Below are positions 88-4,533 of a DNA stretch of 4,612 bases, piece by piece. Under the pieces are notes generated by a model. The model did no database searches and was not told where the DNA came from. It saw nothing but the letters and a program-made list of their open reading frames with translations. Made by a program: the position numbers and the translations under genes. This DNA is from a virus (taxonomy: Duplodnaviria > Heunggongvirae > Uroviricota > Caudoviricetes), in IMG/VR virus record IMGVR_UViG_2693429700_000015. One strand, 5' to 3'. Each line of letters opens with the position of its first letter. The stretch's first letter is position 1.

Positions 88-141
88 CCTGTTTACCTCT
101 TTCTCAGGGAGTTTAGTCTCCAGGATTTCCGGGGCGGTTCA
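1..141 (-). mobile_element. IS3-family insertion sequence, left end (terminal inverted repeat plus start of orfA); element continues beyond the window start
   Basis: Reverse complement of 88-141 reads TGAACCGCCCCGGAAATCCTGGAGACTAAACTCCCTGAGAAAGAGGTAAACAGG followed by ATG: a TGA-starting terminus typical of IS3-family ends, running straight into a transposase orfA start. From memory this resembles IS629/IS1203-like elements; not verified. The element boundary (TG terminus) is at position 141. Confidence 0.8.
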
Positions 142-576
142 TACGTCAGCAAAATAGCGGAAAAGGCCGGGGACTCTCCAGCCAAGTTCATCACTGAAGT
201 TAATAAGCTGAAATCTCAGTCAGGCGGTGAAATTTACAACACTATTTTTTCTGGAAAGCACATGAAAGAGCTTGATGCTCTTCATGAAGTTCTACAGCAA
301 ACAGCAAGGTCAGACACCGCAAATGTAGTAACTCAGACGGGGCAATTGCAAGCCAACAGGATAAGGACGATTGGCGCAACTGCGACCCTTGGTGTATCAC
401 TGGGACTTGAGGCTGGTTTCGGTGCAATCATGCGCTTGTATGAGTCCAAAGCAGCAAGGAATGCTCTCTTACGTCTGGCAAACACCAAAGCAGGAACGCC
501 AGCCTATGAAAGAGCGTTAAGTAACGCTGCAAATGCCGTCAGGCCGCTGTTTGCTACTGAGGCAACACGGCAGTAA
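142..576 (+). pseudogene. 3' fragment of a gene apparently truncated by the IS insertion; product unknown
   Basis: The reading frame of track ORF 262..576 stays open with no stop codon all the way back to the IS boundary at 142 (40 further codons: [47 protein letters not shown]...). No convincing Shine-Dalgarno precedes the ATG at 262. Consistent with the C-terminal 144 codons of a longer gene whose 5' part was separated by the IS. Product not recognised. Confidence 0.45.
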
Positions 577-600: not shown

Positions 601-990
601 CTAACATTTTCTTTTTACTTTTCCAACAAAAGCTTTGGTTGAATCCATATTTCCATAACCGGAAATGGTTTTTGACATTAAAACTGTTCCAGTAGGATGT
701 ATTACCCATGAGTCGATAACGCGTTGAGTTTCGCCATTCGCGCCGATTCCTATGATGGAGTTTTTAGACAATTCTTTGTAAGCCATGCCGCCCGCATCTG
801 TCCCAGAATATGTGATGCTGGCATCTTCACCGCTTGTCTTAATGATGAATGTTCCACTAAAACCATCTTCTTCCGGATGGAAATTATTTCGCTCTGAATA
901 GCTTATTCCGCGCATATCTCCAACGACCCAGCACTCTGCTGTAGCCCCAAAAGATATGAATAAGAACATAGCAGCAAGAAATTGCTTCAC
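601..990 (-). CDS. hypothetical secreted/periplasmic protein with Sec-type signal peptide
   Basis: 129-aa ORF with GTG start at 990-988 preceded by a strong Shine-Dalgarno (GGAGG at 1000-996, 5-nt spacer). The N-terminus MKQFLAAMFLFISFGATA-E has a basic residue, a hydrophobic core and an A-x-A cleavage motif. The mature protein has one Cys near its N-terminus and one at the extreme C-terminus. Family not recognised. Confidence 0.6.
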   Translation of the reverse strand: MKQFLAAMFLFISFGATAECWVVGDMRGISYSERNNFHPEEDGFSGTFIIKTSGEDASITYSGTDAGGMAYKELSKNSIIGIGANGETQRVIDSWVIHPTGTVLMSKTISGYGNMDSTKAFVGKVKRKC

Positions 991-1052
991 ACCAACCTCC
1001 TTAGTTTTGAGCAGGATACCAGATGATACTTTATTGGTGGAGTGGTGTGTGA

Positions 1053-1227: not shown

Positions 1228-1364
1228 AACGTAATGGTTTAAACATGTCGCTAAAGTGGTTGTAAGTTAGCCTCCGAAGGATTGCTGATAGCTTTGTTAT
1301 AGTATTAAATGACATTTGACATAGTTGGATACTTAGCTGCGGCTATCAAGATGGAGGTATGTTT

Positions 1365-1808
1365 ATGCTCACTTGTTTTGATGTCGCCGACTACTTCTTG
1401 GCGCATTGCGATGAAGAAAGTGGCGACATTATCTCTAACCTAAAAATTCAGAAGTTGACGTATTATGCCCAAGGGTTTTCTCTGGTTCTTCTGGGTAAGC
1501 CGCTATTTAATGAGAAAATTGAAGCCTGGATGCATGGGCCAGTAGTTCCTGAATTGTATCGTAAATATAGGGACTGTGGTAACGGCGCTTTACCTGCGCC
1601 AGAAAACTTTGACGCTAAAAAATTCAGTGAAGATGAAATTGAATTGCTGGATGAGGTGTATAAAGTTTATGGTCAGTTTTCTGCCTGGAAACTGCGCAAT
1701 ATGACTCACGAAGAGCAGCCATGGAAAGATGCTTACATTGAGGGTGCGGTTAGCCAAGAAATCACACTTGATTCTATGAAAGGTTTTTTCAAAACGTTAA
1801 TTAACTGA
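1365..1808 (+). CDS. Panacea-domain (DUF4065; GepA/SocA-like) protein, putative antitoxin of a PanA/PanT-type module
   Basis: The segment KIQKLTYYAQGFSLVLLGKPLFNEKIEAWMHGPVVPELY matches the conserved core of DUF4065/Panacea proteins as I remember it (KLQKL-Y-AQ ... PLF-E-AW-HGPV). Start chosen at ATG 1365 (GGAGG at 1353-1357, 7-nt spacer) rather than the track ATG at 1359, which is only 1 nt after the Shine-Dalgarno. A TTGACA hexamer lies at 1316-1321 inside a tandem TGACAT-T-TGACAT, about 45 bp upstream. Confidence 0.75.
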   Translation: MLTCFDVADYFLAHCDEESGDIISNLKIQKLTYYAQGFSLVLLGKPLFNEKIEAWMHGPVVPELYRKYRDCGNGALPAPENFDAKKFSEDEIELLDEVYKVYGQFSAWKLRNMTHEEQPWKDAYIEGAVSQEITLDSMKGFFKTLIN

Positions 1809-2237: not shown

Positions 2238-2263
2238 AAAACCCACCGTCAGGTGGGTTTTTT
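2238..2263. terminator. bidirectional rho-independent terminator shared by convergent genes
   Basis: AAAACCCACC (2238-2247), loop GTCA, GGTGGGTTTT (2252-2261), T-run to 2263: a GC-rich 7-10 bp stem flanked by an A-run upstream and T-run downstream. It sits between the stop of the + strand ORF (2236) and the stop of the - strand ORF (2280). Confidence 0.75.
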
Positions 2264-2279
2264 GTTGGAGATAAAATGG

Positions 2280-2483
2280 TTAACCAAATCGATCCTTAAA
2301 GCGTCTATCGCTGTTGCGTCTCTCCATTTTACTGTTGCAGTACGGACAAAGATGCTGTTTCTTTCCATCGATAGTCCATGTGAAGTACTTTTTCTTAAAT
2401 CCAGCACCACAGATATCGCAACTTCTTGGTTTAAACATGCTGGCTATGAAGACAAGAACAACAAATCCTATGATCCATTCCAT
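2280..2483 (-). CDS. small membrane-anchored zinc-ribbon protein (67 aa), function unknown
   Basis: N-terminal hydrophobic helix (EWIIGFVVLVFIASMF) followed by CxxC...(17 residues)...CxxC (CDICGAG...CPYCNS) and a basic tail. Ends at the bidirectional terminator. Shine-Dalgarno is weak (ACAGG about 10 nt upstream). Confidence 0.5.
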   Translation of the reverse strand: MEWIIGFVVLVFIASMFKPRSCDICGAGFKKKYFTWTIDGKKQHLCPYCNSKMERRNSDRRFKDRFG

Positions 2484-2624: not shown

Positions 2625-2810
2625 ATGACCATAGAAGAACGCCTGAACAACATTGAGTTGAACCAAACCCTGCTTGACCAGCGACTTTCAGATCTTGAGC
2701 TTAAAGATCTTGATGCGCAAATATCAGAAGCAGAAGCCAAGCTCTCCAGCCTAAACCACCGCAAGAAGCAAATCCGCAACAGAATTACTCAGGGACGCGG
2801 AAGCTGTTGA
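2625..2810 (+). CDS. small coiled-coil-like hypothetical protein (61 aa)
   Basis: ATG at 2625 preceded by a strong Shine-Dalgarno AAGGAG (2614-2619, 5-nt spacer). Sequence MTIEERLNNIELNQTLLDQRLSDLELKDLDAQISEAEAKLSSLNHRKKQIRNRI has heptad-like Leu/Ile spacing. A TACAAT -10-like hexamer lies at 2584-2589. The track ORF start at 2577 (GTG) lacks a Shine-Dalgarno and would contain this promoter-like element. Confidence 0.5.
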   Translation: MTIEERLNNIELNQTLLDQRLSDLELKDLDAQISEAEAKLSSLNHRKKQIRNRITQGRGSC

Positions 2811-2994
2811 GGTGGGATGCTAGGTCTCTATCGTTAAAATCAAGGCTGCTAATCATTTCATTGTAAATGGCGTTTTTATCTTCCATTGGCAGTCTTGAGT
2901 AAACCAGACACAGAGCATATTTCAGGGAGTTTAGCTCTTTCTCTAGCTCTTCCTTGCTTGACGTTTTTGACTTAATAAACTGTTTTTTATTCAT
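2785..2994 (-). CDS. hypothetical protein (69 aa) translationally coupled to mnt
   Basis: Its start ATG (2994-2992) overlaps the mnt stop in an ATGA arrangement, with AAGGA about 6 nt upstream inside the mnt 3' end. Hydrophilic, no transmembrane segment, family not recognised. Its 3' end overlaps the convergent 2625..2810 ORF by 26 nt. Confidence 0.5.
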   Translation of the reverse strand: MNKKQFIKSKTSSKEELEKELNSLKYALCLVYSRLPMEDKNAIYNEMISSLDFNDRDLASHLNSFRVPE

Positions 2995-3239
2995 TTTGCA
3001 TCCTTACCATACATGGTTTTCAGTGTTTCAAGCAGCGCCTCTTTGAATTTGTCAGCTTCTTGCTGAGCAAATGACTCAACTGACTTTGGCGACCTATCTT
3101 CATCAATCGCGGCTTGCAAAATCATGACGATCTCGGAGTTAACAGAGCGACCATTTTTTGATGCTCTGACAGCAAGAGCCTCGCGCAAAGATTCAGGGAT
3201 TCTTACCGTAGTTGGAGAAATTGACACACCCTTTGCCAT
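2991..3239 (-). CDS. mnt: Mnt-like ribbon-helix-helix repressor (immI region)
   Basis: 82 aa. TTVRIPESLREALAVRASKNGRSVNSEIVMILQAAI is an Arc/MetJ-type RHH motif (beta-strand, G-R-S-x-N-S-E helix). Length and C-terminal helix (FKEALLETLKTMYGK) parallel phage P22 Mnt (83 aa, C-terminus ...VFDTLKDLYKK) as I recall it. Transcribed divergently from the arc-ant pair, as in P22 immI. Confidence 0.8.
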   Translation of the reverse strand: MAKGVSISPTTVRIPESLREALAVRASKNGRSVNSEIVMILQAAIDEDRSPKSVESFAQQEADKFKEALLETLKTMYGKDAK

Positions 3240-3317: not shown

Positions 3318-3353
3318 TTGTATTCGAAAAGAGTCGTTTGTGCGGAGGGTAAC

Positions 3354-3506
3354 ATGGAGAAAGAAATAAGTAAGATTTTGGTAAGGATGCCGCAGTCGTT
3401 AAAGGACGCTATCGGTAGCAGGGCAAAGGAAGAATGCCGGTCGTTTAACTCGGAAGTGATTAAGCGGTTGATAGACAGCCTGAAGAGAGAGGGGATAACG
3501 GTGTGA
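3354..3506 (+). CDS. arc: Arc-like ribbon-helix-helix repressor
   Basis: 50 aa. ILVRMPQSLKDAIGSRAKEECRSFNSEVIKRLIDSLKREG aligns motif-for-motif with P22 Arc (FNLRWPREVLDLVRKVAEENGRSVNSEIYQRVMESFKKEG) as I recall it. Start at ATG 3354 with GGAGGG 4 nt upstream; the track TTG start at 3318 is rejected. Confidence 0.8.
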   Translation: MEKEISKILVRMPQSLKDAIGSRAKEECRSFNSEVIKRLIDSLKREGITV

Positions 3507-3738
3507 TTCGCTTGGATGCAGTAGTCAAAGAGATTGCGATTACCATTTTAAGACCAAATTTTGTTCATGGCGAATCATTTGGCACGAACGAAAAATTGAG
3601 AAGAGAAAGAGTATTCAGTGGCAAGCGCACATTTTCAGAAGTGATGCTTGATGCGGCAAAGAAATCAAAACAGTGAAGCCCCAACTGCGGTAACAGTCAG
3701 GGCTTCGGTTGTCGGTAAATTCGTGGAGAAAAACCAAC

Positions 3739-4533
3739 ATGAATAGTATAGCAATTTTAGAAGCAGTGAACACCTCTTACGTACCATTCAACGGTCAGCA
3801 AATTATCACCGCCATGGCTGCCGGAGTTGCATATGTTGCGATGAAGCCAATCGTTGAAAACCTTGGAATGAGCTGGTCAACGCAGCAAACAAAACTCATG
3901 AAGCAGATTAGCAAATTCAACTGTGTTCATATGAACATGGTTGCCGCTGATGGGAAGCTTCGTAAGCTACTCTGCCTTCCTTTGAAGAAGTTAAATGGAT
4001 GGCTGTTCAGCATCAACCCCGAGAAAGTTCGAGCTGACATCCGCGATAAACTGATTCAGTACCAGGAAGAATGCTTTACTGTACTGCATGACTACTGGAC
4101 AAAGGGAAAGGCAGAAAATGCACGTAAGAAAACATCTGTTGATGACAGGACTCCGCTTCGTGATGCTGTAAATATGCTAGTCAGCAAAAAGCATCTAATG
4201 TACCCAGAAGCTTATGCAATGATTCATCAGCGTTTCAATGTGGAAAGTATTGAAGAGCTTGATGCATCTCAGATACCGCAAGCCGTAGAGTACATCCACA
4301 GGGTAGTGCTTGAAGGTGAGTTCATCGGCAAACAAGAGAAGAAGCCCAACGGGCTTTCCGCAAAAGAAACAGACATCCTTGTATGGCTGTGGGATTATGC
4401 CAACCGCTCACAGGCATTATTCCGCGAACTGTATCCGGCGCTGAAACAAATTCAATCGAACTATTCCGGCAGATGTCATGACTGCGGTTATGAGTTCTCC
4501 CGTATTATCTGTATTAGCTCAGACCTGATCTGA
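3739..4533 (+). CDS. ant: phage antirepressor (P22 Ant-like, N-terminal P22_AR_N-type domain)
   Basis: [21 protein letters not shown]...[12 protein letters not shown]...[27 protein letters not shown]...[16 protein letters not shown] matches the conserved N-terminal domain of P22-type antirepressors as I remember it. It lies downstream of arc in the same orientation, as in immI. Start taken as ATG 3739 (GGAG at 3725-3728) rather than the track TTG at 3709. Confidence 0.75.

Follow-up and report, generated by a model that had tools for sequence, protein, structure and literature searches.

A conserved gene and its predicted exported product

We analysed a 4,612-nucleotide (nt) stretch of DNA from IMG/VR virus record IMGVR_UViG_2693429700_000015 (the window), which is the immI/sieA region of a P22-like (Lederbergvirus-type) prophage, and centred the analysis on an open reading frame (ORF) at positions 601..990 of the minus strand (Table 1). 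This ORF runs from a GTG start codon (988..990) to a TAG stop codon (601..603), and its Shine-Dalgarno sequence AAGGAGG, the reverse complement of 996..1002, is separated from the GTG by a 5-nt spacer. An initial annotation of the window had described the gene as prophage cargo preceded by a strong Shine-Dalgarno sequence, and both descriptions hold. The start position is confirmed by a clade of homologues with 88% identity that carries ATG at the identical codon. Among 82 copies, comprising the window and related loci, 37 of 37 distinct nucleotide alleles are intact and the ratio of nonsynonymous to synonymous substitution (dN/dS) is 0.12–0.28 for the whole gene and ~0.13 for the part encoding the mature protein. 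The ORF is a real gene, conserved and under purifying selection. We refer to it as the Hex-like gene, after its relative in phage 434.

Table 1. Features of the window, with positions counted from its first letter, strand and basis of assignment
Feature	Position	Strand	Basis
Left end of IS1203/IS3-family element, orfA N-terminus	1..about 146	-	
Gene 16 3′ remnant, P22-type DNA-transfer/ejection protein	127..576	+	phrog_770 'DNA transfer protein', E=1e-38
Hex-family (phrog_2651) secreted protein, coding sequence, 129 amino acids (aa)	601..990	-	ORF list and profile match to phrog_2651, E=9.5e-60
Mature domain E19..C129, 111 aa, predicted eight-stranded up-and-down beta-barrel	604..936	-	
Invariant terminal cysteine C129	604..606	-	
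Invariant terminal cysteine C20	931..933	-	
Sec signal peptide MKQFLAAMFLFISFGATA, codons 1-18, predicted signal peptidase I cleavage after ATA	937..990	-	Hydrophobicity, charge, -3/-1 rule
'sieA-type' leader including Shine-Dalgarno AAGGAGG (996..1002); starts with TGGTATCCT	991..1021	-	blastn against P22
Panacea/SocA antitoxin gene	1359..1808	+	PF13274, 2.2e-24
Panacea partner, 140 aa	1814..2236	+	phrog_8366, 1.3e-75; NCBIfam MAG6450 weak (1.9e-05, below cut-off)
67-aa zinc-ribbon protein	2280..2483	-	Weak Pfam Zn_ribbon matches only
mnt-like Arc-family repressor	2991..3239	-	
arc	3318..3506	+	
sar antisense RNA	3672..3738	-	Rfam RF00262, 87.1 bits, E=3.9e-18
ant	3709..4533	+	

Profile comparison makes the Hex-like protein a member of family phrog_2651, with residues 14-129 aligning to positions 1-116 of the 117-position profile. 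A profile search run exhaustively over 1.84 billion representatives returned 118 clusters at E<=1e-3, nearly all 120–140 aa long, and the family alignment used here comprises 101 of these 118 remote representatives. All 101 match phrog_2651, which is labelled 'unknown function', and scans of the Hex-like protein and the 101 members against Pfam, NCBIfam and PADLOC gave no meaningful match, as did Protein Data Bank (PDB) sequence searches with the family profiles. The initial annotation had not recognised the family, which agrees with the Pfam and NCBIfam results, but homology search does place the protein in phrog_2651 together with the Hex protein of phage 434. Its close family is small and enterobacterial: three records in a collection of 50,697 phage records carry it at E<=1e-5, and the gene is present in 97 IMG/VR stretches.

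Signal peptides were called for the Hex-like protein and the 101 family members by our own calculation from hydrophobicity, charge and the -3/-1 rule. In the Hex-like protein, the predicted signal peptide has a basic n-region (K2), a 12-residue h-region, FLAAMFLFISFG, with a mean Kyte-Doolittle hydropathy of 2.3, and the c-region A-T-A; the 88%-identity clade has a different but equivalent mosaic signal peptide, MKLIIAMAFLVFSFSVSA. The secretion proposed in the initial annotation is therefore upheld for this protein by n-, h- and c-regions and extends across the family, where a hydrophobic N-terminal core occurs in all 101 representatives and is preceded by K or R in 99 of them. Counted back from the conserved cysteine, position -2 is Ala in 78% of members and position -4 is A, S, V or T, so a signal peptidase I site of the form AxA|x-Cys is predicted family-wide. 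The cleavage site of the Hex-like protein reads T-A-E-C, which does not fit the lipobox [LVI][ASTVI][GAS]C, and a lipobox-like motif occurs in just two of the 101 members; we rejected the lipoprotein reading on these grounds. Cleavage at ATA|ECW would release a mature protein, E19..C129, of 12.0 kDa with pI 6.1 and a grand average of hydropathy (GRAVY) of -0.35, in which the maximum hydropathy over 19 residues is 0.77. Of the mature ends given in the initial annotation, the C-terminal KRKC stands, and the N-terminus moves from AECW to a predicted ECW beginning at E19.

The two cysteines at the ends of the predicted mature protein are its most constrained feature. C20 and C129 form the sole invariant columns of the 101-sequence alignment, whose members share 18–61% identity with the Hex-like protein, and the C-terminal cysteine is followed by 0–3 residues in 89 of 101 members; about half of the 101 carry a second cysteine pair spaced by exactly 10 residues. 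The suggestion in the initial annotation that a terminal cysteine pair could link the two ends of the protein is thus matched by the family alignment. Signal peptides and invariant terminal cysteines are hallmarks of exported, disulfide-bonded proteins, and the product of the Hex-like gene would reside in the periplasm.

AlphaFold2 modelling with the 101-sequence alignment gave a predicted local distance difference test (pLDDT) score of 94.4 and a predicted template modelling (pTM) score of 0.82, with all five models at >=93, compared with a pLDDT of 84.5 from a shallow alignment. The model consists of the signal-peptide helix followed by an all-beta, up-and-down eight-stranded barrel in which strand 1 spans residues 19-32, the last strand spans residues 117-128 and most strands are 5-9 residues long (DSSP assignment). 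These strand extents fit an antiparallel register of i+j=149 that would set C20 opposite C129, and because this register pairs the two cysteines, a disulfide closing the barrel seam is plausible; a C20–C129 bond probably staples the first and last strands. Gly, Ser and Thr account for 36 of 111 mature residues, and the prediction agrees with the Gly/Ser/Thr-rich, beta-rich protein foreseen in the initial annotation. A Foldseek search of the BFVD viral structures returned no match at E<=0.001, the best entries being uncharacterised phage proteins.

The sieA slot and its shared leader

The position of the Hex-like gene corresponds to that of sieA in P22, between gene 16 and gene 9, where sieA is convergent with gene 16 across a 22-nt gap and is preceded upstream by orf59a and mnt, both carried on the sieA strand. 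In the window, the gene 16 remnant is convergent with the Hex-like gene and 24 nt separate the two stop codons, and the convergent arrangement recurs in ~75 of 80 IMG/VR loci. The upstream neighbour varies among loci, being mnt directly, a homologue of P22 orf59a (14 loci, 98% identity), a Panacea gene pair or other cargo. Divergence from a Panacea operon, which the initial annotation had emphasised, is a correct description of this window, where a 368-bp intergenic region lies between them, but only 11 of the 80 loci have a Panacea pair near the Hex-like gene. We therefore rejected the link and regard the association as incidental; the informative context is gene 16 and the sieA expression slot.

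The correspondence with sieA extends to the expression signals. By blastn, the leader and GTG of the Hex-like gene (988..1021) are identical to their P22 sieA counterpart at 33 of 34 positions, and the leader takes the form ...(TATCAT)CTGGTATCCTGCTCAAAACTAAGGAGGTTGGT-GTG. Nearly all of 81 loci carry the same leader module before the gene, with homology breaking upstream of the module; in most loci, homology to the window breaks 24–42 nt upstream of the start codon. In 14 of the 81 loci the full 85 nt upstream match the P22 PsieA region (81–85 of 85 positions), and in 2 loci the upstream sequence matches the 106 nt before HS1 sieA type B (scores of 96 and 86 of 106). These 85-bp (P22) and 106-bp (HS1) segments drove functional single-copy sieA in previous work (Leavitt et al. 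2024, PMC10883804). The 88%-identity clade (IMG/VR loci L071-L082) differs in its upstream region and has its own Shine-Dalgarno sequence, TAAGGG, and has therefore left the shared sieA leader; a near-consensus promoter-like sequence, TTGACA-16 nt-TATCGT, occurs ~140 nt upstream of its ATG.

Other genes occupy the same position behind this leader. Gene 14 of phage epsilon34, an hkcB-like gene whose product has an N-terminal transmembrane helix and a coiled coil, is preceded by the same leader and GTG, and HS1 sieA type B shares the leader through the Shine-Dalgarno sequence and then has its own spacer and an ATG (leader positions: P22, L096 ~2803..2836; HS1, L101 just above 26101; epsilon34, L106 2501..2540). 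In the three cases with a GTG (P22 sieA, the Hex-like gene and gene 14 of epsilon34), recombination has joined the cassette to the leader at this codon or a few bases from it. Transmembrane prediction gives three helices for SieA type A, one additional helix for type B and one for the epsilon34 hkcB-like protein, and the Hex-like protein is predicted to be secreted. Sequence comparison indicates that the slot swaps at least four unrelated cassettes at the shared leader, with products that are all predicted to be envelope-targeted. Searches by tblastn with SieA of P22 and of HS1 as queries found no SieA type A (E<=10) or type B (E<=1) in any locus that bears the Hex-like gene. The Hex-like gene replaces sieA exactly in its slot, with shared expression signals.

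SieA is an inner-membrane superinfection-exclusion protein that blocks DNA injection, and sieA is present in only 22 of 66 sequenced P22-like phages (Leavitt et al. 2024, PMC10883804). The Hex-like gene resembles sieA in locus, orientation, leader, Shine-Dalgarno sequence, GTG start and envelope targeting. The proteins differ in that SieA is polytopic and has the motif FxRYPxEAxxFNK, whereas the Hex-like protein has neither this motif nor sequence similarity to SieA, and its only hydrophobic segment is a cleavable signal peptide, leaving a product predicted to be soluble and periplasmic. In a rough megablast census of 5426 complete E. coli genomes, the Hex-like cassette in the sieA slot was found in 147, HS1-type sieA in 21 and 434-type hex, next to a LexA-family repressor, in 207; the E. 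coli hits listed for these cassettes are all annotated 'hypothetical protein'. Carriers of the Hex-like gene include E. coli O111:H- 11128 and ST131 PA45B. If the Hex-like protein is indeed an exclusion factor, its cassette may fill the E. coli exclusion slot more often than sieA does (147 against 21 genomes).

Those distant family members whose contexts were retrieved are found in comparable settings. One homologue with 25% identity (P0135, locus L087) lies between a 753-aa gene in the gene-16 position, itself downstream of Inj_translocase and P22_gp7 genes, and a Head_binding tailspike gene. On a human-gut contig (L098), a homologue with 53% identity is convergent with gene 16 after the gp7 and gp20 genes, and a Rahnella homologue, in a decayed prophage, has a Head_binding gene and an integrase beside it. 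Further members lie beside or directly downstream of prophage repressors in 434, Sf6, HK446, HK633, Sf101, Huey and a contig (L097) on which a four-cysteine member lies between a CI-like repressor, which it follows, and an integrase. Another is in the early region of a ~42 kb phage (L090), and one is carried by a mobile element together with AlpA, a PyocinActivator-domain protein, a DUF927 protein and BstA (L089). These are slots typical of accessory or exclusion genes expressed from prophages.

Phage 434 Hex and the case for superinfection exclusion

The one family member with a described phenotype is Hex of phage 434. Relaxed tblastn searches with the Hex-like protein gave full-length matches of 26-27% identity in 434, lambda imm434, Sf6 (gene 38), HK446, HK633, Sf101, Huey and Chlobot, and in most of these records the match adjoins or overlaps an annotated prophage repressor gene. 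For 434 and Huey, a position immediately after the repressor was confirmed, and the Sf6 gene lies between the PRM/OR and OL/PL signals. The Huey homologue (PQ850609, L104 2001..2405) is annotated 'antimicrobial peptide resistance and lipid A acylation protein PagP', probably an automated call from generic eight-stranded-barrel similarity. The 134-aa Hex ORF of 434 reads MIRIAALLSILLTTSANS|ECW...FVGDVVGTCNQ, aligns end to end with the profile of the clade of the Hex-like protein (hhalign probability 98.2%, E=5.9e-14, 128 columns), matches phrog_2651 at E=1.4e-58 and is 27% identical to the Hex-like protein by BLASTP. The two proteins share their size, a signal peptide with an AxA|E-C-W junction, a C-terminal cysteine and the motifs ETW/DSW and FVGxVxxxC, and both are encoded by accessory genes of prophages, hex in a slot that is expressed during lysogeny and the Hex-like gene in one that may be, to judge from its leader. 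They differ in that hex comes immediately after cI within the PRM operon of a lambdoid immunity region, whereas the Hex-like gene occupies the sieA slot by gene 16; identity is low, and the cytoplasmic function published for Hex does not fit the export signals. From these comparisons, the Hex-like protein is with high probability an exported member of the Hex family.

The name Hex stands for 'heterologous exclusion': a Salmonella lysogen of lambda imm434 excludes P22 and a hex- lysogen does not, as recounted in PMC3564112 from Susskind and Botstein (1980). The reading that we favour starts from this phenotype. The Hex-like protein would be exported by the Sec pathway, processed by signal peptidase I to a periplasmic protein of ~12 kDa and folded as an eight-stranded barrel whose first and last strands are probably stapled by the C20–C129 disulfide. 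As a divergent member of the Hex family placed in the sieA slot with the sieA leader and GTG, it would most likely be synthesised constitutively from the prophage, given its use of the sieA slot, leader and start codon, and would act in the periplasm as a superinfection-exclusion factor against incoming P22-like phages, functionally standing in for inner-membrane SieA. Its most probable mode of action would be interference with trans-periplasmic DNA delivery by gp7, gp20 and gp16, or with the parts of the virion that penetrate the cell wall. We infer from homology and context that the gene is expressed in lysogens, that its product excludes phages and what this product acts on. An exclusion role is favoured by the homology to Hex, the sieA slot, the shared expression signals and the mutual exclusivity with SieA, and further by the slots of distant members, the envelope-targeted cassettes behind the same leader and the family-wide export signals and cysteine pair.

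Our confidence differs among the parts of this proposal. Superinfection exclusion as the function has slightly better than an even chance, the explanation as a whole (a periplasmic exclusion factor in the sieA slot and an exported relative of Hex) is evenly balanced, and a block acting specifically on periplasmic DNA delivery is a tentative suggestion that falls somewhat short of even. Among the roles that the initial annotation had offered for small periplasmic proteins of prophages, the context favours an immunity or exclusion-type function and would place the block at DNA delivery rather than at adsorption or receptor masking.

Several observations weigh against this interpretation. The family also has members in phages outside the P22-like group (434 and the ~42 kb phage), so its target may be something other than the P22 ejection proteins, and the predicted fold is generic, with no specific structural relative and nothing that points to a binding partner. 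This window shares just 31 nt of the sieA upstream region, and promoter scans detected no consensus sigma-70 promoter upstream of the ORF in the window; the TGGTATCCT at the start of the leader is, speculatively, a possible extended -10 element. Mutual exclusivity between the Hex-like gene and sieA could simply mean that one slot holds one cassette. The account of hex exclusion of P22 in PMC3564112 does not state the stage of the block, which could be post-injection, and the sole biochemical study of the family assigns to Hex a cytoplasmic function, in which it inhibits the cleavage that RecA stimulates in the 434 and P22 repressors (PMC3564112).

The alternative that survives best holds that the Hex-like protein is a periplasmic hydrolase inhibitor, of the PliC/MliC lysozyme/transglycosylase kind or the AprI/ecotin protease kind, that shields the envelope of the lysogen. 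It could act against host lysozyme, with effects on fitness or virulence, or against virion cell-wall hydrolases, which would itself amount to superinfection exclusion in the manner of T4 Spackle. PliC and MliC are small periplasmic eight-stranded beta-barrels, the architecture predicted here. Against this kinship, none of the 101 family members matches Pfam MliC (PF09864) or Inh at E<0.01, comparison of the family profile with E. coli MliC gives an hhalign probability of 2.2%, the MliC motifs SxSGAxY and YxxxTKG occur in no member, and a match to PhiA ranked below ~30 unrelated barrels. We rejected a relationship to MliC/PliC on the Pfam, hhalign and motif results, and the lysozyme-inhibitor role mentioned in the initial annotation finds no sequence or motif support; hydrolase inhibition as a whole we consider unlikely.

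A second alternative makes the protein a ligand-binding periplasmic barrel, of the lipocalin, avidin, FABP or hemophilin kind, that serves host physiology as a lysogenic conversion function unconnected with defence. Pfam and PDB searches detected no sequence relationship to any of these four families, and the strict placement of members in exclusion or lysogeny slots, together with the Hex phenotype, points instead to conflict between phages, making this reading improbable.

The third alternative takes the published mechanism of Hex at face value: the protein would be a cytoplasmic 'repressor protection' factor that binds the prophage c2/cI repressor, damps its RecA-stimulated autocleavage and so stabilises lysogeny. 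Deletion of hex raises spontaneous phage release ~30-fold in recA+ but not recA- hosts, and in vitro a fragment termed sHex inhibits the RecA-mediated cleavage of either repressor, that of 434 or that of P22 (PMC3564112). The GenBank label of 434 hex (L102 2429..2905) is 'repressor protection protein', and the Hex-like gene lies within a P22-like prophage. Set against this are the signal peptide with an AxA site in all 101 members and an invariant feature that consists of two cysteines at the mature termini. The study assumed a 158-aa hex ORF, did not discuss a signal peptide and never considered export; since full-length Hex, toxic on over-expression, was unobtainable, the work relied on the 6-kDa sHex, purified with guanidine hydrochloride (PMC3564112). 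Renumbered, the sHex boundaries E43-N103 of the 158-aa ORF become E19-N79 of the 134-aa ORF. The fragment thus starts exactly at the predicted signal-peptidase site, ANS|EC, a noteworthy coincidence that falls short of proof of processing, and ends at N79, so that it lacks the second half of the predicted barrel. The hex ORF adjoins the 3′ end of cI or overlaps it, and the two genes are transcribed together from PRM (Shkilnyj et al. 2013, PMC3564112); the hex deletion could therefore have altered cI expression in cis. Repressor protection thus appears quite improbable for the Hex-like protein, and the family-wide export signals call the sole published Hex mechanism into question; the cytoplasmic RecA model for Hex may need re-examination.

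Least probable is an eight-stranded outer-membrane barrel of the PagP, Lom, Ail or OmpX kind. Such proteins typically contain almost no cysteine and end in an aromatic residue that belongs to the BAM beta-signal. In this family two cysteines are what never varies, and an aromatic residue closes just 2 of 101 sequences; the mature protein has just 111 residues and a negative GRAVY, most of its predicted strands are 5-9 residues long, and no member matches a Pfam outer-membrane-protein or PagP family. We rejected this reading on strand length, the C-terminal residue and the Pfam result.

A periplasmic exclusion factor in the sieA slot would have precedents among envelope-acting exclusion proteins, which include periplasmic T4 Spackle, the lipoproteins T5 Llp and phi80/N15 Cor, the surface lipoprotein Ltp and HK97 gp15 of the inner membrane. 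Like these, the Hex-like protein is proposed to be a small phage-encoded protein that is exported to the envelope and stops the entry of superinfecting phages. It differs from them in having neither a lipobox nor a membrane anchor, and no sequence relationship to any of them was detected; to our knowledge, none of the five is a disulfide-stapled eight-stranded barrel. If the proposal is correct, a soluble periplasmic exclusion factor would be an easier reagent than a membrane protein for trapping and studying the little-understood trans-periplasmic ejection-protein conduit of short-tailed phages. A broader generalisation, possible but rather doubtful, is that Hex-family proteins form a widespread, so far unrecognised class of soluble periplasmic exclusion proteins, disulfide-'cyclised' eight-stranded barrels that would act in the periplasm against phage DNA delivery and that P22-like prophages would exchange freely with SieA behind a single conserved leader; the published Hex mechanism would then not reflect the native, exported protein. 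Prophage exclusion proteins as a kind, and the Hex family, are already known. Our literature searches on phrog_2651, and on Hex as an exported protein, found nothing, and relative to the incomplete library searched, three points appear to be new: that the family is exported, that it occurs in the sieA slot and that cassettes are exchanged at a conserved leader.

Other features of the window

The immI identity of the region is confirmed by the canonical P22-type sar RNA, which lies between the arc-distal ORF and ant. Gene 16 is cut by the IS1203/IS3-family element, leaving only its last ~150 codons, and the adjoining Hex-like gene is intact; because the element interrupts gene 16, this copy of the prophage is defective and would yield no infectious virions.

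Three further observations concern the cargo between the Hex-like gene and the mnt-like gene. The Panacea antitoxin gene and that of its 140-aa partner are 5 nt apart, and the partner is presumably the toxin of a Panacea-type toxin-antitoxin pair. Downstream of the pair, positions 2238..2265 contain a hairpin-like sequence followed by a T-run, a position at which the terminator scan listed no site. The 67-aa protein combines an N-terminal hydrophobic segment with a CxxC...CxxC arrangement, and is 98-100% conserved in two other loci (L003 and L017).

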